Shown in pieces: positions 1-24,156 of a stretch of DNA of 24,156 nt; within the stretch, counting starts at the first letter, position 1, and every line of letters starts with the position of its first letter. The notes beneath the pieces were generated by a model. The model had not been told where the DNA came from, did not search any database, and was given only the letters and a program-made list of their open reading frames with translations. The stretch lies in IMG/VR virus record IMGVR_UViG_644736359_000007; one strand, written 5' to 3'. Origin of the DNA: a virus (lineage: Duplodnaviria > Heunggongvirae > Uroviricota > Caudoviricetes). Made by a program: the position numbers and the translations under genes.

Positions 1-1362
1 ATGTTTAAACCGGAACTCCTTTCCCCGGCGGGAACGCTGAAAAATATGCGTTACGCTTTCGCTTATGGCGCAGATGCTGTTTATGCGGGCCAGCCGCGTT
101 ACTCCCTGCGTGTGCGCAACAACGAATTCAACCACGAAAATCTTCAGCTCGGCATCAATGAAGCCCACGCGCTGGGGAAAAAGTTTTATGTCGTGGTCAA
201 CATTGCACCGCACAACGCCAAGCTGAAAACCTTTATCCGTGACCTGAAACCGGTGGTGGAAATGGGGCCGGATGCGCTGATTATGTCCGATCCAGGGCTG
301 ATTATGCTGGTGCGTGAGCACTTCCCTGAAATGCCGATCCACCTCTCGGTGCAAGCTAACGCCGTAAACTGGGCGACGGTGAAATTCTGGCAGCAAATGG
401 GCCTGACCCGCGTGATCCTCTCTCGCGAGCTGTCGCTGGAAGAGATTGAAGAGATCCGCAATCAGGTGCCGGATATGGAGATCGAGATCTTCGTTCACGG
501 CGCACTGTGCATGGCCTACTCCGGTCGCTGCCTGCTCTCTGGCTATATCAACAAGCGCGATCCGAACCAGGGTACCTGCACCAACGCCTGCCGCTGGGAG
601 TACAACGTCCAGGAAGGGAAAGAAGATGACGTTGGCAACATCGTACACAAGTACGAGCCGATTCCGGTGCAAAATGTTGAGCCGACGCTGGGTATCGGCG
701 CGCCAACCGACAAAGTGTTTATGATCGAAGAAGCCCAGCGTCCGGGCGAGTATATGACCGCGTTTGAAGATGAGCACGGCACTTACATCATGAACTCGAA
801 AGATCTGCGCGCCATCGCCCATGTAGAACGCCTGACCAAAATGGGCGTGCATTCGCTGAAAATCGAAGGCCGTACTAAATCTTTCTACTATTGCGCACGC
901 ACCGCACAGGTTTACCGTAAAGCTATCGATGACGCCGCTGCGGGCAAACCGTTCGATACCAGCCTGCTGGAAACTCTGGAAGGTCTGGCGCATCGTGGCT
1001 ATACCGAAGGTTTCCTGCGTCGTCATACTCACGACGATTATCAGAACTACGAATACGGTTATTCAGTTTCTGACCGCCAGCAGTTTGTTGGTGAGTTTAC
1101 CGGTGAGCGCAAGGGGGACCTCGCGGCGGTAGCGGTGAAAAATAAATTCTCCGTTGGCGACAGCCTTGAGCTGATGACGCCGCAAGGCAACATTAACTTT
1201 ACCCTTGAGCACATGGAAAACGCCAAAGGTGAAGCGATGCCGGTCGCACCAGGCGATGGTTATACTGTGTGGCTCCCGGTCCCGCAGGATCTTGAGCTCA
1301 ATTACGCTCTGCTGATGCGTAATTTCTCCGGGGAAACCACGCGTAACCCACACGGTAAGTGA
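1..1362 (+). CDS. yegQ: U32-family peptidase-like protein YegQ (TrhP/RlhA family, tRNA hydroxylation)
   Basis: Complete 453-aa ORF beginning at window position 1; recognised from memory as E. coli YegQ (U32 peptidase family, Cys-rich segment GTCTNACRWEY); E. coli-like codon usage; followed by cyaR as in E. coli. Confidence 0.9.
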   Translation: MFKPELLSPAGTLKNMRYAFAYGADAVYAGQPRYSLRVRNNEFNHENLQLGINEAHALGKKFYVVVNIAPHNAKLKTFIRDLKPVVEMGPDALIMSDPGLIMLVREHFPEMPIHLSVQANAVNWATVKFWQQMGLTRVILSRELSLEEIEEIRNQVPDMEIEIFVHGALCMAYSGRCLLSGYINKRDPNQGTCTNACRWEYNVQEGKEDDVGNIVHKYEPIPVQNVEPTLGIGAPTDKVFMIEEAQRPGEYMTAFEDEHGTYIMNSKDLRAIAHVERLTKMGVHSLKIEGRTKSFYYCARTAQVYRKAIDDAAAGKPFDTSLLETLEGLAHRGYTEGFLRRHTHDDYQNYEYGYSVSDRQQFVGEFTGERKGDLAAVAVKNKFSVGDSLELMTPQGNINFTLEHMENAKGEAMPVAPGDGYTVWLPVPQDLELNYALLMRNFSGETTRNPHGK

Positions 1363-1396
1363 TTAATTTCGATTATTTTTCCCGGATGGAAAATTC

Positions 1397-1439
1397 TTAG
1401 AAACCGATCACATACAGCTGCATTTATTAAGGTTATCAT
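1397..1439 (+). promoter_or_regulatory. Putative cyaR promoter: CRP-like half-site TCACA near -40 and -10 hexamer TATCAT (1434-1439)
   Basis: TATCAT ends 7 nt before the inferred cyaR 5' end at 1447; an imperfect CRP-type site (TAGAA-N5-TCACA) is centred about 42 nt upstream. cyaR is known to be CRP-activated; the site here is a weak match. Confidence 0.4.
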
Positions 1440-1446
1440 CCGTTTC

Positions 1447-1533
1447 GCTGAAAAACATAACCCATAAAATGCTAGCTGTACCAGGAACCACCTCCTTAGC
1501 CTGTGTAATCTCCCTTACACGGGCTTATTTTTT
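1447..1533 (+). ncRNA. cyaR: CyaR (RyeE) Hfq-dependent small RNA
   Basis: 87-nt sequence GCTGAAAAACATAACCCATAAAATGCTAGC...CCTGTGTAATCTCCCTTACACGGGCTTATTTTTT matches the E. coli CyaR sRNA as I recall it, ending in an intrinsic terminator hairpin (CCTGTGTAA/TTACACGGG) plus U-tract; located immediately downstream of yegQ as in E. coli. Confidence 0.85.
1507..1533. mobile_element. Prophage attL: P2-type att core (AATCTCCCTTACACGGGCTTATTTTTT) overlapping the cyaR terminator
   Basis: 27-mer is the reverse complement of the P2 att core AAAAAATAAGCCCGTGTAAGGGAGATT (from memory); a second copy with one mismatch lies at 23653-23679 next to int. Confidence 0.8.
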
Positions 1534-1596
1534 ACGCGTAATACAATGAAATAAAAGGATTTATTTCTGGTCACGTCCACACATTGACCACATCGA

Positions 1597-1623
1597 CAAA
1601 AAAGCCCCTCGACTGAGGGGCTT
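1597..1623 (-). terminator. Intrinsic terminator downstream of ogr
   Basis: On the minus strand: stem AGCCCCTC / GAGGGGCT with 4-nt loop followed by TTTTTT, 12 nt after the ogr stop codon. Confidence 0.6.
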
Positions 1624-1634
1624 CCTGTTTGTAA

Positions 1635-1853
1635 TTACATCCACATAATTTGCTGCCCTGACGGCAACGGGTGCGGTCTTACGGCGTGGACTTCTCCCGG
1701 CTTCACGATGTATCGCTGTACCGACTCATAAGTGATGAACGTGGCGCTGCAATTCACGTTCTGGCACTGATGATAACGCTCTTTTGTCGTGTCAGTGATA
1801 TAGCGGCTTGTACGCGCATGTGCGGCATGCTGGCATAAAGGACAATGAAACAT
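1635..1853 (-). CDS. ogr: Ogr, zinc-finger late-gene transcription activator (P2 Ogr / E. coli OgrK-like)
   Basis: 72-aa product MFHCPLCQHAAHARTSRYITDTTKERYHQCQNVNCSATF... with C4 zinc-binding cysteines; start taken at the internal ATG (1853) with upstream GGAAGAGG RBS rather than the longer track ORF (1916). Confidence 0.9.
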   Translation of the reverse strand: MFHCPLCQHAAHARTSRYITDTTKERYHQCQNVNCSATFITYESVQRYIVKPGEVHAVRPHPLPSGQQIMWM

Positions 1854-1934
1854 CGCGAGCACCTCTTCCGGTTTGGTTGATGGTGCCATTTTAGTTAAAT
1901 TATCCTTATAAAACAAACAGATAAAATAAAAACA

Positions 1935-2714
1935 TCACTCATCATCTTCTGTTTCGTACTCCACATCAGAAAGCCTGACCTCAAGCTCCAGGGACGTCGT
2001 GAAGCCGCTATTATTCAGAAAATGTGTCACCTTAGTGATTGTCCAGTCCTGCTCGTCTATGACGCGCTTAAAGCCTGACACTTTAACCGGTGTTTCCGTG
2101 TAAATATCAGCACGACCGGTAGCCAGACTGATGGAGAACTCCGCAACGCCCCGTTGCAGCTTATCCCACTTCGCCTGAGCGGCGCGCATGGCCTGCGCTT
2201 TCGTGGCATATACCGTGGTCAGGGCAAAAACGTTGTCAGCCTCACCGGCCATGTATTCACCTTCACGCGCTTCCGGTACTTTAGGCGCTTTCTTCTGCCT
2301 GACCGGTTTCGCGTTCGGGTGCTCCAGTGCGCGCAGGTGTTTCTCTTTCTTTTTGCGTTTCAGTTTTACCTTCTGCTTTTGCGGTTTCGGGTCTTTGGTG
2401 TGTAACCACTTTGCCGTTACGCCTGTATCGTCGCGCTGGTAAGAGCCTGCAAAACGAATCGGCACGGCATCCACACCGGTTGCGGCGTAAAGCTCCCAGA
2501 TAACCGAATCCGGGAATCCACCGAGCGACCACTCCATTGACAGCGCATCGTCATCAAGGCCGAGGTCTACCGGTGCGCTGCCGTTCATCCCCGCACCGCG
2601 ATAGTTTTCGAGCTTACGGGTCAGTTTTGGCAGCGTGACGGACTTTGCAACGCCCTGATAGCTGTAGCCGTTCAGAAAGACGTTCATTAACTTGAGTTTG
2701 CGCGGCATTGCCAT
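1935..2714 (-). pseudogene. Hybrid ORF: N-terminal ~95 aa of P2 tail tube protein FII fused in frame to the C-terminal part of tail protein D (yegZ-like remnant)
   Basis: N-terminus MAMPRKLKLMNVFLNGYSYQG... is the P2 FII start with a strong RBS (AAGGAG); after ...PIRFAGSYQRDDTG the sequence switches to a lysine-rich linker and a C-terminus (...FTTSLELEVRLSDVEYETEDDE) that I recall as gpD-like. Genes E, T, U and most of D are absent, consistent with an internal deletion. Confidence 0.65.
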
Positions 2715-4959: not shown

Positions 4960-5146
<187 letters not shown>

Positions 5147-5175
<29 letters not shown>

Positions 5176-6265
5176 TTGCCCTTATTATACTATAAAAGGC
5201 AACACTAAAAAAGAAAACATTTCATCTTCTGCTGTTTTAACAACAGCCCTGCATACTTCTCTTCTAAAAATCACAACGGTAATTAATGAAATTAATTCTA
5301 TTTATCCCTTTGATGTCTCAGTTGTTATTCCGGTTCACAACCGAGAAACCCTTATTCTCGAATGCATTAAATCTTTAAACAATCAGACTATAGATAAAAA
5401 TTGTTTTGAAGTTATTTTCATTGATGACTGTTCCACTGACAGGAGCATTGCCGCCATTGAATATAACATTTCGAGAGAAATAAATTATCGTATTATCCGT
5501 AGAGCAGTTGGTTCAGGGAATGCATCAGCGCCGCGAAATGAGGGAATAAAATCCGCAAAAGGTCGCTATGTGTTTTTCTTAGACTCTGATGATTCCATTC
5601 ACTCTGACTTACTGTCCGATGGTATTCAGATGGCTTATAAAAACAATAGTGACATTGTATATTTCAAGCAGGTTTCCTCTACAGGGAGAGGGGTTCCTGT
5701 ACGCCCATTTAAGGCAGACACGAATAAAGCAGATATTATAAAAAACCATCTTTTTAGATCATTAAAAATCTTCAAGTTCTTTAAAAGAGAGTTGCTAATC
5801 AATAACAACATCTTATTTAACCCATCAATTTCAGTCTATGAGGATATGCTTTTTTCTTGCCAGAGCCTAACTGTAGCTAATACGATATCTATACTGGCAA
5901 GAAAGGGCTACTACTCTCTGAATCGCCATGAAGAACCACATCTATCTAAAACATCTTTCTCCATTAAACAAAGAGCCTTGGTATTACAAACAGGTTTGAT
6001 TTATATCTTATCAAGCAATAAAAATGAAGCAGAAATAGTAAAAATGTTTAATGCATGGCTGGTTATTTGCGTTGAGCACTTGGCATCCATATTATCCAAA
6101 AAAAGTTTAACAACTAATGAGAAGTCTCACGTTTTTAACTTGATACATAAATCACTCTTACCATATACAGGGCTTGTAAATGAGTCCCAAATATATCCCG
6201 CACAAAGAGAGCTTGTCAGTTGCTTAATCTGTGGAGATTATTCTTCTTTTTGCGAAAAAATATAA
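5147..6265 (+). CDS. Family-2 (GT-A fold) glycosyltransferase
   Basis: Conserved GT2 motifs VSVVIPVHN, DDCSTD, APRNEG and FLDSDD in the first ~150 aa. There is no in-frame ATG: candidate starts are GTG 5147 or GTG 5153 (AGGTG RBS-like at 5143-5147), or ATG 4960 after a one-unit change in the AGCC tract. AT-rich, atypical for the prophage backbone. Confidence 0.75.
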
Positions 6266-11844: not shown

Positions 11845-12630
11845 ATGTTCAGTGATAATGTGACTAATGCGTGGTGGTTTATCTCTTTGTATCTATTTTT
11901 ATTAATAGCATTAACATTTATTACCTTTGGTAAAAGTAATCTTATGAGGTTTATTGCACATCATTTCAATTTTGAGTATTCAGACAGAAAGTTAAAAATG
12001 CTCGACAAAAAATGGCGCGACATTCAACTATTTAAAATAATTAACGGAATCAATGTATCAGGCATCGAAGATGTGAGAATGATACAGCAGGGGCTGATTG
12101 ATGGAAAACTAAAAACATCGTATTTTTTTCTTACTCGCTTCTGGGGTGACATAACAAAACCACCACACATAATTAAAACAATAATTGTAATTCTGTCCAG
12201 CATTATTTATATTCTCTTCGCATGTTATATACACAACAAACAATCCGCTATAGTAAGAGATGCCATAGGCATACCATATAAAAATATGATGTACTATGTT
12301 TATAGTGACAAAGTTCTTTTATCCTTCAACAATAAAACAGTTGAATTCAATAAAACTTATAGCCTTGCCGATTGCAAGAGGCTACGAAACATATTTATAA
12401 AAGACACACTTCCTGAGATCGCCTGCAATAAGCTCTTACAGCTAAACGAGGAGGACTCGGAATGGTTAAGTCAGGAAATTAAAGATAATAACAGCCAAAA
12501 AAAAGCATTATTAATAATATCCCTCATCTATTTCATTTCAGGTCTGGTTATATTCCTGTCATATACAAAATTCCTTTACGCCAATAAGAAGGTTGTAGAA
12601 TACAAAGCATCAAATAAAAATCACTCATAA
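11845..12630 (+). CDS. Hypothetical membrane protein (three predicted transmembrane helices), AT-rich cargo gene
   Basis: ATG with strong GAGGAG RBS; 261 aa with hydrophobic segments AWWFISLYLFLLIALTFITF, IIKTIIVILSSIIYILFACYI and ALLIISLIYFISGLVIFLSY; lysine/asparagine-rich; no homolog recognised. Confidence 0.6.
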   Translation: MFSDNVTNAWWFISLYLFLLIALTFITFGKSNLMRFIAHHFNFEYSDRKLKMLDKKWRDIQLFKIINGINVSGIEDVRMIQQGLIDGKLKTSYFFLTRFWGDITKPPHIIKTIIVILSSIIYILFACYIHNKQSAIVRDAIGIPYKNMMYYVYSDKVLLSFNNKTVEFNKTYSLADCKRLRNIFIKDTLPEIACNKLLQLNEEDSEWLSQEIKDNNSQKKALLIISLIYFISGLVIFLSYTKFLYANKKVVEYKASNKNHS

Positions 12631-12694: not shown

Positions 12695-12955
12695 GATAAA
12701 ACTAACGCTCAAGGTGAGCCAGGATAATCTCTTCAATCATCTGCACATCCTCACCGGTAAAGCCGAGCAGAGGACGCGCCGGATAATCAATTTTCTTACC
12801 GTCTTTCCGGGTTTCTTCCGACAGACCGAACTGATGCACACTGGCGATTTTCGGCGACTTTCCCAGCAGGATTTCAGCCGCTTTGTGCTGGATTTTCTGG
12901 TGTTCGGTAATGCGTTTCTGGAAAAGCGTTACAGCACCACCGGTAAGGTCATCAG
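12695..12955 (-). pseudogene. Orphan 3' fragment (87 codons) of an unidentified gene on the minus strand
   Basis: Minus-strand frame translates to GFQSDDLTGGAVTLFQKRITEHQKIQHKAAEILLGKSPKIASVHQFGLSEETRKDGKKIDYPARPLLGFTGEDVQMIEEIILAHLER-stop using preferred E. coli codons (CTG, CCG, GGT, CGT), whereas the overlapping + strand track ORF uses rare codons (AGG, CGG, ATA, CGA); no start codon; bounded upstream by an in-frame stop at the junction with the Q fragment. Confidence 0.5.
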
Positions 12956-13931: not shown

Positions 13932-15902
13932 TTAAAGGTCATCAATTAAACCTAAAGGCAAACCATCCTCACCAACCGAGCTATAATGAGCGATAATATT
14001 CGAAAGTTCACCAGTAGAAAACGAATTAGGCAAATCATTATCAACTAATATAATCTGGCACGGAACATTTTTTCTTTCTGCTTTTTGAACTGTATTCAAT
14101 AGTTGCTCATAAATATTTTGATACTTCATCGGGTCTGACATCCCCTCAAGGTCATCCTCGACTGCAAGAGTTTCTTTTGAGTATTTTTCCTTGGTCTGTT
14201 TCCCTAAATATTTACCAACCGTATCAAATATCAAAAGTAAAGGATGGTTAACATTATGGTCTATTGCATAATCAAGAATAGACAAAAGATACCCAATAGA
14301 AGAAATAGTTCTCAAACCTCCGGACGTTATTTTAAAATATTCCTTTCCTCTTATAACAGGGGTGTAATATCTTTCAGAGATTTTTATCCCCGTTCTGTTT
14401 TTGATATTAATACCCTTCAAATACTGACTAAATCTATCACCTAAACCTTGTAAAATGCCTTCCATACTAGGTGCGTTTTTCTTTAACGCATCCAAGCGTT
14501 CAGTTAATGTTTCAATATCTTTTATCAGTACCTGATGCTTTTCAAGCAGTTCCTCTTGCTGGTTTCTAACCTTCAAATCTTTTACTAACTGCTCCCTAAC
14601 CTTCTCGTTTTTTGATATCTCTTTAATATAAAAATCTCTCTGAGTCAAGAATGGTGTAATCATTGACTGGCTTTCTTCGTCAATTAACTCTCTCAACTCG
14701 TCAAGTTGTTCATCTAATTCTTTTTTATAACCAGATTCTTTTTTTAATTTAAATGACATTTCTGAGATCATGTCATTAATATTTCGTCTACGTCGACTAA
14801 GTGAATTCAACTCTTCATTAAGATCTTTTTCTGATGAAATTTCAAATGGAAAATCGGAATCATCTATTTTAATGTGGCTATCACAGATCGGACAGGAAAA
14901 TACTTCCTTATCCAATACACCAATGCGAGAATTTGCTGTTTTAATCGCTTTGAGTTTTTCAATATCATTATCATAGTCATTTTTTAACCGCGAATATTTA
15001 TCAATCTTATCCTCAAGCGTGCTAATATTTAATATGCACTCCTTGTATTTAAGCGAAATAAAATTGTGGGCATCTTTCAATTCTGTATACTGCATGGAAT
15101 CCGCTTTCATATTTTTATCGAGAGCAGACAAACCTGCAACAAGTTCTTCTAAAATAAGATCTATCCTATTAATCTCATCATCAATTGATTCAATTGTTTC
15201 ATAGTCTGTATCGCGAAGAAATTCAGATATTATCTGATACTTCTTATTTAGTTCCGTTACTAAACTACTTTTTGCAGATATTTCACCTTGGAGTCTGGCG
15301 ATGCTTTCATCCAACACATTGAACATGTATTTAAAAACTTCTTTCGTAAATGCGTAACGGGACCAATCCTCCAATCGTAAGAATGATTTACTACCAATAT
15401 CATCCTGACTTACATAAACAAATTTATATATATTTCTAAAGCTTAACCTGCGCATCTGTGAATGTGCTTTAGAAGGAGACACCTTAATTTCAATTTTTGG
15501 AAAATTAAGACTATCAAGTAAAAACTCCGAAAAAACGCCATCAACATTTGATAAGGGGCTATAATTAGGAGCGTATTTTTTCGGAAAGTGTTTATGTAAA
15601 TCATCAAACTTACAACGATAAACTTCTATTGATTTTTTATGATCATAGATATCTCTTACGATTGTGAATACAGTATCATTGATCACTACTTCAAGAGCAG
15701 CATAGTTTACTGATGTTTTTATTTCATCTGCTAAATCTATAGAACTAGCACCTAAAAGATAATTAATAAACTCCAGAATACTTGACTTACCTGTGTCAGA
15801 GTCTCCGTAGATAACATTGAGACCTTTATAAAAAGTAGTGACGTAGTTTTTACGAACGCCAACAAGAATCAAACTATTGATATTGAGATATGATTTCATC
15901 AT
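13932..15902 (-). CDS. Rad50/SbcC/SMC-like ABC ATPase with central coiled coil and CPxC zinc-hook motif (candidate LmuB-like)
   Basis: 656 aa; Walker A GDSDTGKSS (about 15781-15807); long heptad-like charged region; CPICD near the middle (about 14878-14892); ABC signature ITSGG (about 14311-14322); Walker B HPLLLIFD (about 14221-14250). AAGGAG RBS; start ATG 15902 or 15899; ATGA overlap with the upstream gene stop. Confidence 0.7.
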   Translation of the reverse strand: MMKSYLNINSLILVGVRKNYVTTFYKGLNVIYGDSDTGKSSILEFINYLLGASSIDLADEIKTSVNYAALEVVINDTVFTIVRDIYDHKKSIEVYRCKFDDLHKHFPKKYAPNYSPLSNVDGVFSEFLLDSLNFPKIEIKVSPSKAHSQMRRLSFRNIYKFVYVSQDDIGSKSFLRLEDWSRYAFTKEVFKYMFNVLDESIARLQGEISAKSSLVTELNKKYQIISEFLRDTDYETIESIDDEINRIDLILEELVAGLSALDKNMKADSMQYTELKDAHNFISLKYKECILNISTLEDKIDKYSRLKNDYDNDIEKLKAIKTANSRIGVLDKEVFSCPICDSHIKIDDSDFPFEISSEKDLNEELNSLSRRRRNINDMISEMSFKLKKESGYKKELDEQLDELRELIDEESQSMITPFLTQRDFYIKEISKNEKVREQLVKDLKVRNQQEELLEKHQVLIKDIETLTERLDALKKNAPSMEGILQGLGDRFSQYLKGINIKNRTGIKISERYYTPVIRGKEYFKITSGGLRTISSIGYLLSILDYAIDHNVNHPLLLIFDTVGKYLGKQTKEKYSKETLAVEDDLEGMSDPMKYQNIYEQLLNTVQKAERKNVPCQIILVDNDLPNSFSTGELSNIIAHYSSVGEDGLPLGLIDDL

Positions 15903-16264
15903 TTCTCCTTGAAGACTTTGTTTATAACAGAGTTTAACTTAGAGGTAGGCAATGCTTGTAGCGGTAACAATGCTTCGGCTAGTCGTTTTATTTCTTTAAA
16001 ATATCCATCAGTCAATGAGCTAGCAAATTCCTTACCTTTTTCAGATAAAAATAATTTAACACTCTCATTATTTTTTTTCTCAGCTGAGAGCAATCCCCGC
16101 AATGACATAATTTTTATAAGATATTTCACTTTGGAATTGTCGAATAAGATATCTACATTTGATGAAAAACTCTTTATTGTATAAGTTAACTGGGACTCGA
16201 CACAAGCAGGCTTTTTCCCCGAAACTGTAAGAGCACAATCAATTTTTGATGGATTTTTTATCAC
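15899..16264 (-). CDS. Small hypothetical protein encoded between the hydrolase and the ATPase (candidate LmuC-like accessory)
   Basis: 121-codon ORF (GTG start at 16264; alternative ATG at 16108 would give 70 aa); stop overlaps the ATPase start (ATGA), indicating translational coupling; AT-rich. Confidence 0.5.
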   Translation of the reverse strand: MIKNPSKIDCALTVSGKKPACVESQLTYTIKSFSSNVDILFDNSKVKYLIKIMSLRGLLSAEKKNNESVKLFLSEKGKEFASSLTDGYFKEIKRLAEALLPLQALPTSKLNSVINKVFKEK

Positions 16265-16399
16265 AGATACATAAAAATTTGTATTTTATTAATATCTAAT
16301 GACAACACTCCTTTTTTACTATGAGATAATATAGATATAGCAATGGCAAGCATAGCAAAATTCAAACTATACTCTTCATCAAGAGGTATATACGGCAAG

Positions 16400-17623
16400 T
16401 TATTTTTCTTCATGATTACCTCGCCGTAATTGCTCCAAAGTTTCTACGCTGGTTTCAGATGACCAGACAATATCCCTGTCATTTTTGTTAGCCAGTTGAT
16501 GCAACATTCCTTTCTTATGTATCGTTTCCAAACTTTTTATAAGAGAATCTAACGACGACTTATCCTCCTGGGTTATTCGTCTATGAACAGCAGCAATAAA
16601 TTTATCTGGGGAAATTGAATTTGCAATGTATTGCTCATACTCTTCCTGGTAAATCTCCCTTATTTTAGAATACAAATGACCAAGTTGTTTTCTATCGTAA
16701 TCACTCGTAAAAATATTTCTCGCAAGCTCAGCATTATAATAATATTCCTTTGCATGCAGAGCGATATCCTGATGTATATCTGCGACAATCATTTTTAAGA
16801 CGAAATACTCATTATCATATTGTTTATCATCAGAAAAACGCTCAACGCAAATCTTCTTGGGTGCTTCTAAATTTATCTGCTGAATAAATTGCTTTACCGC
16901 AACAAACACTGTAGACGAGCTATTTTCGGGCTTGCAAATTGAGCTATGCCCTTCATTAACTGCAATTGAGTTATGTCGTTCACTATCCATCGGTAATGCG
17001 CTTTTTTTATCGACTATAGTGTCATGAGATCCATAAACATATCTAGTGATAGGAAGTTTTTTGCTACAATTTATCCAGCGCCTATTCAATGTATCAGTCG
17101 CTTCACTTAACAATCCAAGATCTACTAACTGAGCATTTGAAGATACCATTGAAGTTATATTCGCTAATTTAGCACCAAAGTGAGGGACTGCTAACGAAAT
17201 GAATCCAATTATATTAGATTGTTCCTCATGCTCAACTTTTTTTAGAATTAGATTTTTTGATATTAACCCCCCCATACTATGGGCGATTATTATAATTCGA
17301 GAGTAATCACTTAGTGTTACTCTAATCTCAGTATACAATAACTCAGCTATTTCATCAGTTGGTAAATTTCTCTCTAACTTATTTTTCTTAAAGAAAATAC
17401 GAGCCAAGAATCCTGACGTTTTAGCATACGTTTGTGTGAATTTAGTAAAATAATTGAAACATGCAATATCAAATACGTTGCTAATATCTTCATCTTCTGC
17501 TAATAGTTTTGGAAATGAAATTTCTTTATTAAAGTTCCATGTTTCCAAACCACCATTTAATCCATGTACAAATAGTATCAGGCTATCTTTTTTCTCGTGG
17601 CTTATCCATTCAACCATGCTCAT
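16400..17623 (-). CDS. Alpha/beta-hydrolase (lipase/esterase-like) domain protein with a C-terminal helical domain (candidate LmuA-like effector)
   Basis: 407 aa; N-terminal LILFVHGLNGG and nucleophile-elbow IIIAHSMGGL (GXSXG-type, about 17267-17284), then candidate Asp (GSHDTIVD) and His (NEGHSSIC) in Ser-Asp-His order; C-terminal ~160 aa charged/helical; sigma70-like promoter (TTGTTT-N16-TATACA) just upstream. Confidence 0.7.
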   Translation of the reverse strand: MSMVEWISHEKKDSLILFVHGLNGGLETWNFNKEISFPKLLAEDEDISNVFDIACFNYFTKFTQTYAKTSGFLARIFFKKNKLERNLPTDEIAELLYTEIRVTLSDYSRIIIIAHSMGGLISKNLILKKVEHEEQSNIIGFISLAVPHFGAKLANITSMVSSNAQLVDLGLLSEATDTLNRRWINCSKKLPITRYVYGSHDTIVDKKSALPMDSERHNSIAVNEGHSSICKPENSSSTVFVAVKQFIQQINLEAPKKICVERFSDDKQYDNEYFVLKMIVADIHQDIALHAKEYYYNAELARNIFTSDYDRKQLGHLYSKIREIYQEEYEQYIANSISPDKFIAAVHRRITQEDKSSLDSLIKSLETIHKKGMLHQLANKNDRDIVWSSETSVETLEQLRRGNHEEK

Positions 17624-21747: not shown

Positions 21748-22023
21748 TTAACGTGGTTCACCGAGACCTAACCACATCAACCAGCCGTCACGAATCTCTT
21801 TAGGACGGCTTTCATAAGCCAGTTTTAGTCCGTTATTCCATGCCGGAAGGTATACCCAATATTCACCAGCACGCCCCGATACTGACTGAGGGTCAGTAAT
21901 CTCAATAACTGGTAATTTCCCTTTCTCAATCATGCCCCTTACAGCTCTTGGAGTTTTACCAATGAGTTTTGCAAACTCCTGATAAGGCACGGCATCAGTC
22001 ACGCTTACAAGCTGTCTATTCAT
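21748..22023 (-). CDS. cox: Cox (excisionase / repressor of Pc)
   Basis: 91-aa product with C-terminus ...SGRAGEYWVYLPAWNNGLKLAYESRPKEIRDGWLMWLGLGEPR matching P2 Cox from memory. Confidence 0.85.
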   Translation of the reverse strand: MNRQLVSVTDAVPYQEFAKLIGKTPRAVRGMIEKGKLPVIEITDPQSVSGRAGEYWVYLPAWNNGLKLAYESRPKEIRDGWLMWLGLGEPR

Positions 22024-22559: not shown

Positions 22560-23573
22560 ATGGCAATCAAAAAACTCGATGATGGTCGATATGAAGTGGA
22601 CATCCGCCCTACTGGACGTAATGGAAAACGCATCCGTAGGAAGTTTGATAAGAAAAGCGAAGCTGTCGCTTTCGAAAAATACACGTTGTACAACCACCAC
22701 AATAAAAAATGGCTATCAAAACCAACAGACAAACGACGTCTGTCGGAACTGACACAGATCTGGTGGGATTTAAAGGGTAAACACGAAGAGCATGGGAAAT
22801 CTAATCTTGGAAAAATTGAAATCTTCACAAAAATAACGAATGACCCATGCGCATTTCAAATCACGAAATCCCTTATCAGCCAGTACTGCGCCACCCGAAG
22901 AAGTCAGGGTATTAAACCTTCGAGTATCAATCGTGATTTAACATGTATTAGCGGCATGTTTACAGCCCTGATTGAAGCGGAGTTATTCTTTGGTGAGCAC
23001 CCTATCAGAGGGACAAAGAGGCTTAAGGAGGAAAAACCAGAAACAGGCTATCTCACACAGGAAGAAATTGCCTTACTGCTTGCAGCACTTGACGGCGACA
23101 ATAAAAAGATTGCGATTCTTTGCCTGAGTACAGGAGCACGTTGGGGAGAAGCAGCTCGTTTGAAAGCAGAAAATATCATCCATAACCGCGTCACGTTTGT
23201 TAAAACGAAAACAAACAAACCACGCACCGTCCCGATCTCAGAGGCTGTTGCCAAAATGATCGCGGATAACAAACGAGGTTTTTTATTCCCTGATGCTGAT
23301 TACCCTCGCTTCAGACGAACAATGAAAGCAATAAAACCGGATTTGCCAACGGGGCAAGCCACACATGCACTAAGGCACAGCTTTGCCACTCATTTCATGA
23401 TTAATGGAGGAAGTATTATCACGCTACAACGGATACTAGGTCACACGCGGATTGAGCAAACTATGGTTTACGCTCATTTTGCGCCAGAGTACCTTCAGGA
23501 CGCCATTTCTCTTAATCCGCTAAGAGGTGGTACTGAGGCCGAGAGTGTCCACACAGTGTCCACAGTAGAGTAA
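22560..23573 (+). CDS. int: Tyrosine integrase
   Basis: 337-aa product MAIKKLDDGRYEVDIRPTGRNGKRIRRKFDKKSEAVAFEKY... with C-terminal catalytic residues (R...HALRHSFA...LGH...Y); GGAGGG RBS; adjacent to the att core. Confidence 0.9.
   Translation: MAIKKLDDGRYEVDIRPTGRNGKRIRRKFDKKSEAVAFEKYTLYNHHNKKWLSKPTDKRRLSELTQIWWDLKGKHEEHGKSNLGKIEIFTKITNDPCAFQITKSLISQYCATRRSQGIKPSSINRDLTCISGMFTALIEAELFFGEHPIRGTKRLKEEKPETGYLTQEEIALLLAALDGDNKKIAILCLSTGARWGEAARLKAENIIHNRVTFVKTKTNKPRTVPISEAVAKMIADNKRGFLFPDADYPRFRRTMKAIKPDLPTGQATHALRHSFATHFMINGGSIITLQRILGHTRIEQTMVYAHFAPEYLQDAISLNPLRGGTEAESVHTVSTVE
23545..23564. promoter_or_regulatory. Tandem direct repeats GTGTCCACA (x2, 11-bp period) inside the int 3' end: putative Int arm-type binding sites
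   Basis: Repeats seen directly; related GTCCACACA and GACCACAT motifs occur in the opposite arm next to attL (1574-1596); position about 90-110 bp from the att core. Confidence 0.4.
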
Positions 23574-23652
23574 CGTTTAAGGGCTTTCAGTGGTAATTTA
23601 TGCCGCTCAAACCCGCATTGTACCGTTGAAAGCCCCTACTGGTGACACCCTA

Positions 23653-23679
23653 AATATCCCTTACACGGGCTTATTTTTT
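23653..23679. mobile_element. Prophage attR: P2-type att core copy (AATATCCCTTACACGGGCTTATTTTTT, one mismatch)
   Basis: 23 of 27 positions form an identical run with 1511-1533; directly follows int. Confidence 0.75.
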
Positions 23680-23838
23680 TATGCATAAGCCCTATCTCTG
23701 GTAACCGTCTTCCATTGACCACATCGATAGAATCCTCCTTCATAGCACGATGCCTTTCACTTATCGGCATCGTGCTCCCACAGGTTCCGGCTACGCACAG
23801 CCAGAACGCGCATATTTGACGCTTACCAAAAAATATTC

Positions 23839-24156
23839 TCACTCTCCACATTTGAATGTCAGACGAGCGACACCATGTAATCCTACACCTTCTGTCTTCA
23901 GCTCAACTATTTGCATTTTTTTGCCCTGAGTAACACAGAAATGAGTTGCATCATTTTTTACTATATTTTCTGCACCAGATATTCTACCCCTGGCTAAAGA
24001 AGCTTCGGCTTCGGTGTAGTATTGGTTATCGAGTTTACGCTGAATATTACTTTTATATGCAAGACCAAATTTACCGATACTTGTCTCATCATTATGCACA
24101 GCACAACCAGACATAATAAAAATACTAATTAATGATATAGCAGCTATCTTTTTCAT
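23839..24156 (-). CDS. yegR: Small lipoprotein-like protein YegR
   Basis: 105-aa ORF with signal peptide and lipobox (IMSGC); recognised from memory as E. coli yegR, which flanks the cyaR-associated P2 remnant in K-12; start codon is the last three bases of the window. Confidence 0.75.
   Translation of the reverse strand: MKKIAAISLISIFIMSGCAVHNDETSIGKFGLAYKSNIQRKLDNQYYTEAEASLARGRISGAENIVKNDATHFCVTQGKKMQIVELKTEGVGLHGVARLTFKCGE

Follow-up and report, generated by a model that had tools for sequence, protein, structure and literature searches.

Escherichia coli B carries a P2-like element that begins within the gene of the sRNA CyaR, which raises the question of how a phage can come to lie inside a terminator without depriving the sRNA of its 3′ end, and which parts of that end are of host and which of phage origin. 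The window considered here, that is the whole stretch of 24,156 nt that was analysed, holds the element together with both host flanks (Table 1). The overall model, which none of the observations contradicts and to which we assign a probability of about 95%, is that a P2-type phage integrated at an attB located in the cyaR terminator. A P2-type temperate phage would have recombined its attP with attB in a site-specific reaction catalysed by the tyrosine recombinase Int, attB being the 3′ end of E. coli cyaR between yegQ and yegR and the preferred site of P2. Owing to the shared 27-nt core, the cyaR sequence would be left unchanged through position 1533, with a second copy of the core left at the int end.

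Table 1. Features of the window; positions count from its first nucleotide, and the last column gives the basis of each assignment.
Feature	Position	Strand	Basis
yegQ/trhP, host gene, left flank	1-1362	+	RefSeq annotation of the identical E. coli B stretch; ORF list
cyaR (ryeE) sRNA gene	1445-1533	+	Rfam RF00112 and published 87-nt length
CyaR intrinsic terminator	1498-1533	+	Fold and terminator scan
cyaR-proximal att core (host arm, core, P2 P arm)	1507-1533		Equals P2 attP core and empty-site core
Inferred strand-exchange interval, core positions 5-12, TCCCTTAC	1511-1518		Paired-junction polymorphisms
P arm: IHF site about 1532-1565, Int arm-type sites 1569-1596	1532-1596		Transferred P2 features 24293-24357
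Defective P2-like prophage body (published as P2*B)	1534-23652		Homology; PMC3032704 Table 2
ogr/F-operon rho-independent terminator	1601-1624	-	P2 record feature 24265-24288; hairpin 1602-1623
ogr, late-gene activator	1635-1853	-	72/72 identical to P2 Ogr
cox, excision directionality factor and Pc repressor	21748-22023	-	Pfam Phage_Cox 1.7e-42
C immunity repressor, helix-turn-helix	22145-22444	+	RefSeq annotation; Pfam
int, tyrosine integrase	22560-23573	+	335/337 identical to P2 Int
P′ arm: Int arm-type sites and Cox-binding region about 23563-23636	23539-23636		Transferred P2 features 24399-24496
int-proximal att core (P′ arm, core, host right arm)	23653-23679		Variant A at 23656 (core position 4)
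P-arm-like stretch of the host right arm	23692-23727		Repeat family, alignment, consensus search
yegR, host gene, right flank	23839-24156	-	ORF list; RefSeq annotation

The Rfam family CyaR_RyeE (RF00112) matches positions 1445-1530 of the plus strand with 100.7 bits against a gathering score of 47, over the full length of the model (1-85 of 85) and without truncation. CyaR, the expression of which is CRP-dependent and the transcript of which is bound by Hfq (PMC5686845, citing De Lay & Gottesman 2009), has a length of 87 nt (PMC5686845). Counted from a start at 1445-1447, the 3′ end of the sRNA therefore falls at 1531-1533 and the core constitutes its last 25-27 nt. The terminator folds into an 11-bp stem (1498-1508 paired with 1515-1525) with the loop at 1509-1514 and the tail or U tract TATTTTTT at 1526-1533 (dG -15.9 kcal/mol, z -4.9). 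Of the 5′ arm the core includes only the final two bases, and loop, 3′ arm and U tract belong to it in full. Both the Rfam match and the fold bear out the sequence-only reading, which had placed the core at the cyaR 3′ end including the U tract.

The core at 1507-1533, AATCTCCCTTACACGGGCTTATTTTTT, numbered 1-27 in what follows, recurs at 23653-23679 as AATATCCCTTACACGGGCTTATTTTTT. A C-to-A change had been reported for this second copy and is indeed the single difference between the two (26 of 27 positions match); the variable base corresponds to the second nucleotide of the terminator loop. With up to three mismatches allowed the window holds two core matches, as compared with none in any of 100 dinucleotide shuffles. 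The bare presence of a direct repeat, and nothing more, would fit a chance match or the target-site duplication of a transposable element, an explanation to which we give practically no credence: the shuffles yield no match, 27 nt far exceeds transposon target duplications, the repeat is the annotated attP core of P2 and the DNA between the copies is a P2 genome that includes int, cox and arm sites. The annotated core lies at 24356-24382 of the P2 record and is identical to the left copy; around it the record annotates the Int P and P′ arm sites, an IHF site and the Cox region.

Alignment at base level gives junctions of the Campbell type, with host arm, core and P arm on the left, P′ arm, core and host arm on the right, and host, core and host at the empty site. 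The empty site was rebuilt by joining the left flank, one core and the right flank, and this 1010-nt query is found uninterrupted and with 100% identity in RM9513, MS 124-1 and other E. coli as well as in locus L003. The comparison with an unoccupied cyaR locus, which had been proposed as a check, thus has a single core joining the flanks. According to megablast against phage genomes, homology to P2 spans exactly 1507 to 23679, and the insert between the two cores amounts to 22.1 kb. That the two att copies delimit the foreign segment consequently holds exactly, by the empty-site match as well as by the alignment of the junctions, and so does the assignment to the phage of the DNA from the core rightward, including ogr on the opposite strand, which lies 101 nt beyond the left core. 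The P2-type junction of P′ arm and core is present at this locus in 670 of 5426 complete E. coli genomes (about 12%).

At the occupied locus of the window and at the empty locus the terminator fold is identical. The claim that an intact sRNA 3′ end is regenerated is upheld in that the transcribed cyaR sequence is unchanged through 1533; after this position the sole change in the B window relative to the empty site of the same haplotype is the replacement of the seventh T by an A in the lysogen, so that a run of seven U in B-type hosts becomes a run of six. On this comparison the outcome of integration for the terminator of the B window is neutral. The int-side core, on the other hand, forms no hairpin (fold z 0.03), and it was rejected as a candidate terminator of int on account of this value and of a scan without any terminator-like match.

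E. coli B strains (B, ATCC 11303 and derivatives) match the whole window at 100% identity, and the RefSeq order on the identical stretch is yegQ/trhP, ogrK, a P2-like prophage with several truncated late genes, int and yegR. The prophage of the window is the published P2*B, the defective P2-like element of E. coli B (REL606/BL21), with the same insertion site and in the same strain (PMC3032704 Table 2); among B records only the copy number of a (CAGC)n array at 5114-5144 varies, and nothing of substance. An intact 33-kb version of the element is present in strain TOE3. In comparison with this relative, two segments are missing from the B element, one of 4.3 kb spanning D′ to FII′ (junction at about 2414-2423) and one of 8.3 kb spanning S′ to Q′ (junction at about 12858-12864), and it is because of these two late-gene deletions that the B prophage is defective. 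The losses would have occurred after integration, giving rise to the defective P2*B. A further record, NZ_CP029371.1 ('strain C', from cow's milk), covers 83% of the E. coli B window at 100% identity, the remainder being split by the origin of the record, and also has the B-type junction with the A allele, which suggests a member of the B lineage and not classical E. coli C.

The distribution of this junction also bears on whether integration took place in the B lineage itself. TOE3 and three other non-B genomes share the A-allele junction over a 71-nt query, and the flank of TOE3, which was compared as a whole, is identical to that of B, which is compatible with shared descent or with regional transfer. 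The occupied locus could accordingly have reached the B lineage by homologous recombination of a prophage-bearing segment in the course of transduction or conjugation. We regard this route as unlikely, and it would alter only the place of the integration event but not the structure, the junctions being exact Int products.

Integration by Int at the cyaR site is in line with the gene content of the right end of the prophage. Int matches the Pfam models Phage_integrase and Int_N, both above the cut-offs, int and cox are intact open reading frames, and the int stop codon is separated from the right core by 79 nt. The coordinates of the arms were carried over from the P2 record through an alignment with the window that is free of gaps. 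The consensus of the arm-type Int site is tgTGGaCa, arranged in direct repeats (PMC3448106); a search with it recovers two near-perfect sites in the P arm, TGTGGACG at 1574-1581 and TGTGGTCA at 1585-1592, and two perfect copies of TGTGGACA in the P′ arm at 23546-23553 and 23557-23564, all on the minus strand. Int, IHF and Cox may catalyse integration and excision at the att sites of the window.

In comparison with phage P2 and its 'locI' reaction (attP x attB with Int, IHF and Cox), the window has the same 27-nt core, an Int that is 99% identical, the same P and P′ arm-type sites, the same IHF and Cox regions and the same arrangement with ogr on one side and int on the other. It differs from P2 by the A at position 4 of the int-side core, the Int substitutions E50K and M264T, the absence of 12.6 kb of late genes and a different cargo at the variable hotspots.

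Where within the core the strands are exchanged determines the ancestry of each half of the terminator. Junctions were collected from IMG/VR by the phage arms alone, with the core free to vary, and left and right junctions were paired per contig. At position 4, the copy next to cyaR has C and the copy next to int has A in B, in TOE3 and in one B-like IMG/VR contig. Contig 640753023_000011, an E. coli lysogen with a host side 98.5% identical to the window, has TTACGCAGGC on the cyaR side and the native TTACACGGGC on the int side, so that at positions 13 and 15 the phage alleles face cyaR and the host alleles face int; TTACGCAGGC is also the core of a true attP composed of P′ arm, core and P arm (L107). 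Two further alleles, each native at some empty sites, are seen in lysogens exclusively in int-side copies, namely A15 (L110, L111) and C19 (L106, L108). On the cyaR side, position 15 is G on the contig of L110 (L167) and on a neighbouring contig of the genome of L111 (L207), and position 19 is T on the contig of L106 (L173), L108 being without a paired left junction.

Four independent polymorphisms, at positions 4, 13, 15 and 19, agree with one another, and from them we infer that strand exchange takes place between core positions 4 and 13 (window 1511-1518), natural variants in prophage predictions and isolate genomes being the basis of this assignment. An imperfect inverted repeat in the core had also been considered as a guide to the overlap region and was discarded as too weak by eye, the polymorphisms being used instead. 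A crossover between positions 4 and 13 implies that the terminator is host DNA in its 5′ arm and the larger part of its loop and phage DNA in its 3′ arm and U tract, and the CyaR terminator of a lysogen would thus be a chimera of host and phage. The proposal that the prophage now supplies the terminator would accordingly hold for the 3′ arm and the U tract and fail for the 5′ arm and most of the loop. Likewise, the C-to-A change would not mark the ancestral copy as had been suggested, as both copies would be hybrids of host and phage and neither ancestral.

This leads to the origin of the A at 23656, which lies on the phage (P′) side of the crossover. An implied reading of the earlier suggestion is that the A arose as a point mutation after integration, in the copy outside the selection on cyaR, in which case attP would have read AATCTCCC. 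C is the state of position 4 in the attP of P2 and at empty sites, and the A is rare: in IMG/VR it was met in 3 of 97 int-side junctions, and the 670 occupied complete genomes gave 14 exact matches, 10 of them in the B family. Furthermore, a free-phage attP with A was not recovered from IMG/VR, where the single standard-core attP (L078) and the variant-core L107 both have C at position 4. All of these observations would suit a mutation in place. However, the three IMG/VR carriers of the A have int regions closest to that of the window prophage and three different haplotypes of the host right arm. In one of them (L067), identity amounts to 99.66% over 5.6 kb on the prophage side and to 96.4% over 476 nt on the host side, and the host haplotype switches at the first base after the core, which fits independent integrations of a phage carrying the A. 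Moreover, the intact relative in TOE3 shows the same pattern of C on the left and A on the right as B.

A mutation after integration is, for these reasons, rather improbable. As the A occurs beside three host haplotypes, and divergence is much lower on the phage-derived side of the junction than in the host flank, it was most likely carried in by the attP of the phage and did not arise in place. The A at 23656 would then represent the phage attP allele kept on the P′ side, and attP would read AATATCCC.

Whether the exchange of terminator halves has any consequence depends on the alleles that meet. CyaR terminators whose 5′ arm comes from the host and whose 3′ arm comes from a phage bearing another allele are observed in the lysogens L120, L175, L156, L117 and L126. 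In L120 and L175, from a non-E. coli host with a host side 76% identical, the GCCTGCGTAA 5′ arm of the host is joined to the P2-type TTACACGGGC 3′ arm, which introduces a C.A mismatch into the terminator stem, so that regeneration of the terminator is not always perfect. In E. coli hosts with native A15 or C19, lysogeny turns a U-A pair into U.G or alters the tail, and upon infection of E. coli by a phage with the TTACGCAGGC core the pair types of the terminator swap. The chimeric terminators of IMG/VR lysogens indicate that integration can change the sequence of the sRNA terminator.

Downstream of the CyaR terminator, the hairpin of the ogr/F-operon terminator follows at a distance of 69 nt. 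In a reporter about 41% read-through of the CyaR terminator has been found (PMC9765468). Read-through from cyaR in lysogens, and also in K-12, would run antisense into ogr.

The host DNA to the right of the second core presents a peculiarity of its own, as positions 23692-23727 resemble the P arm of P2 (compare 1561-1596). The local alignment scores 38, with a mean of 17.9 and a maximum of 32 upon shuffling and none of 500 shuffles reaching 38. The stretch retains one arm-type Int site, TGTGGTCA at 23716-23723 on the minus strand, and is located 15 nt nearer to the core than in P2; it occurs at empty E. coli sites, whereas the right arms of non-E. coli hosts in IMG/VR lack it. A very old P2-like relic may consequently adjoin attB in E. 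coli, and with its Int site this relic might contribute to the preference of P2 for the cyaR site. An open reading frame of 71 amino acids on the minus strand (23636-23851) was considered as a relic of ogr and rejected, as by eye it has neither a resemblance to Ogr nor a CxxC zinc-finger motif.

With respect to cargo, the perfect (CAGC)n array is found directly upstream of a gene for a family-2 glycosyltransferase (5147-6265), with 7.8 copies in the window versus 35.8 in the strain B record CP115178, and the span of the match among B derivatives ranges from 24166 to 24306 nt. The array has the appearance of a hypervariable simple repeat and could serve as an expression switch for the glycosyltransferase; an assembly error is also possible. 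A block of low GC content (33-36%, 13932-17623) occupies the old/tin hotspot of P2 between the portal remnant and gene A. RefSeq annotates in it an ABC-three-component system of two proteins and an AAA-family ATPase, so that a role of the block in anti-phage defence is probable; at the same hotspot, the cargo of relatives is a DUF7380 protein or a different AAA ATPase. Between the baseplate gene V and the S remnant, a hypothetical open reading frame of 261 amino acids (11845-12630, plus strand) is present in some relatives (L103, L104) and absent from TOE3 and P2; this patchy occurrence indicates that 11845-12630 is another variable cargo position.

The 27-nt core and the P2 site were reportedly described by Yu et al. 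(1989) and by Barreiro & Haggard-Ljungquist (1992). Literature searches pairing cyaR with P2 terms returned no direct match. Under the designation 'cyaR RNA', the insertion site is listed in the description of the E. coli W genome for P2*B in B (REL606), ogr-D′ in K-12 and Wphi2 (P2) in W (PMC3032704 Table 2), and ryeE, the older name of cyaR, has been called 'previously known to be targeted by phages' (Bobay et al., PMC3603311, citing Wassarman et al. 2001). From these sources, the cyaR-terminator site is the classical preferred attachment site of P2 and as such already known, an identity that the sequence-only reading had not recognised.

The ogr-D′ remnant of K-12 has the same junction of cyaR, core, P arm and ogr and shares 1641 nt with the window (501-2141) at 97.6% identity, but of the prophage genes it retains just ogrK and part of D, the latter joined to an incomplete second core of 18 nt, TACACGGGCTTATTTTTT. 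The K-12 remnant derives by deletion from an insertion of this kind. Integration into the 3′ end of tRNA, tmRNA and sRNA genes is exemplified by phage 186 in tRNA-Ile, Fels-2 and SopE-phi in ssrA and prophages at ryeB/sdsR (PMC3448106, PMC3603311). In these cases the core likewise overlaps the hairpin at the 3′ end of the RNA and the phage copy restores the hairpin, whereas the target of the P2-type phage is the terminator of an Hfq-dependent sRNA and not a tRNA-like arm.

As cyaR (ryeE) has been recognised as an attachment site of P2 for more than two decades, the location as such carries little weight as a discovery. It is a textbook case of a phage that targets the conserved terminator hairpin of an sRNA and then restores it. 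As the target remains conserved, the site remains usable, at no cost to the host. What is added here, on a small scale, is a map of natural variation, from which the terminator of lysogens emerges as chimeric, with a loop-proximal crossover, and integration as able to swap the terminator allele of the host for that of the phage. That lysogeny subtly tunes termination, Hfq binding or stability of CyaR, and that the P-arm-like relic may aid site preference, is a long shot. If true, the former would be lysogenic conversion acting on an sRNA, by way of the phage alleles of the 3′ arm and tail of its terminator.
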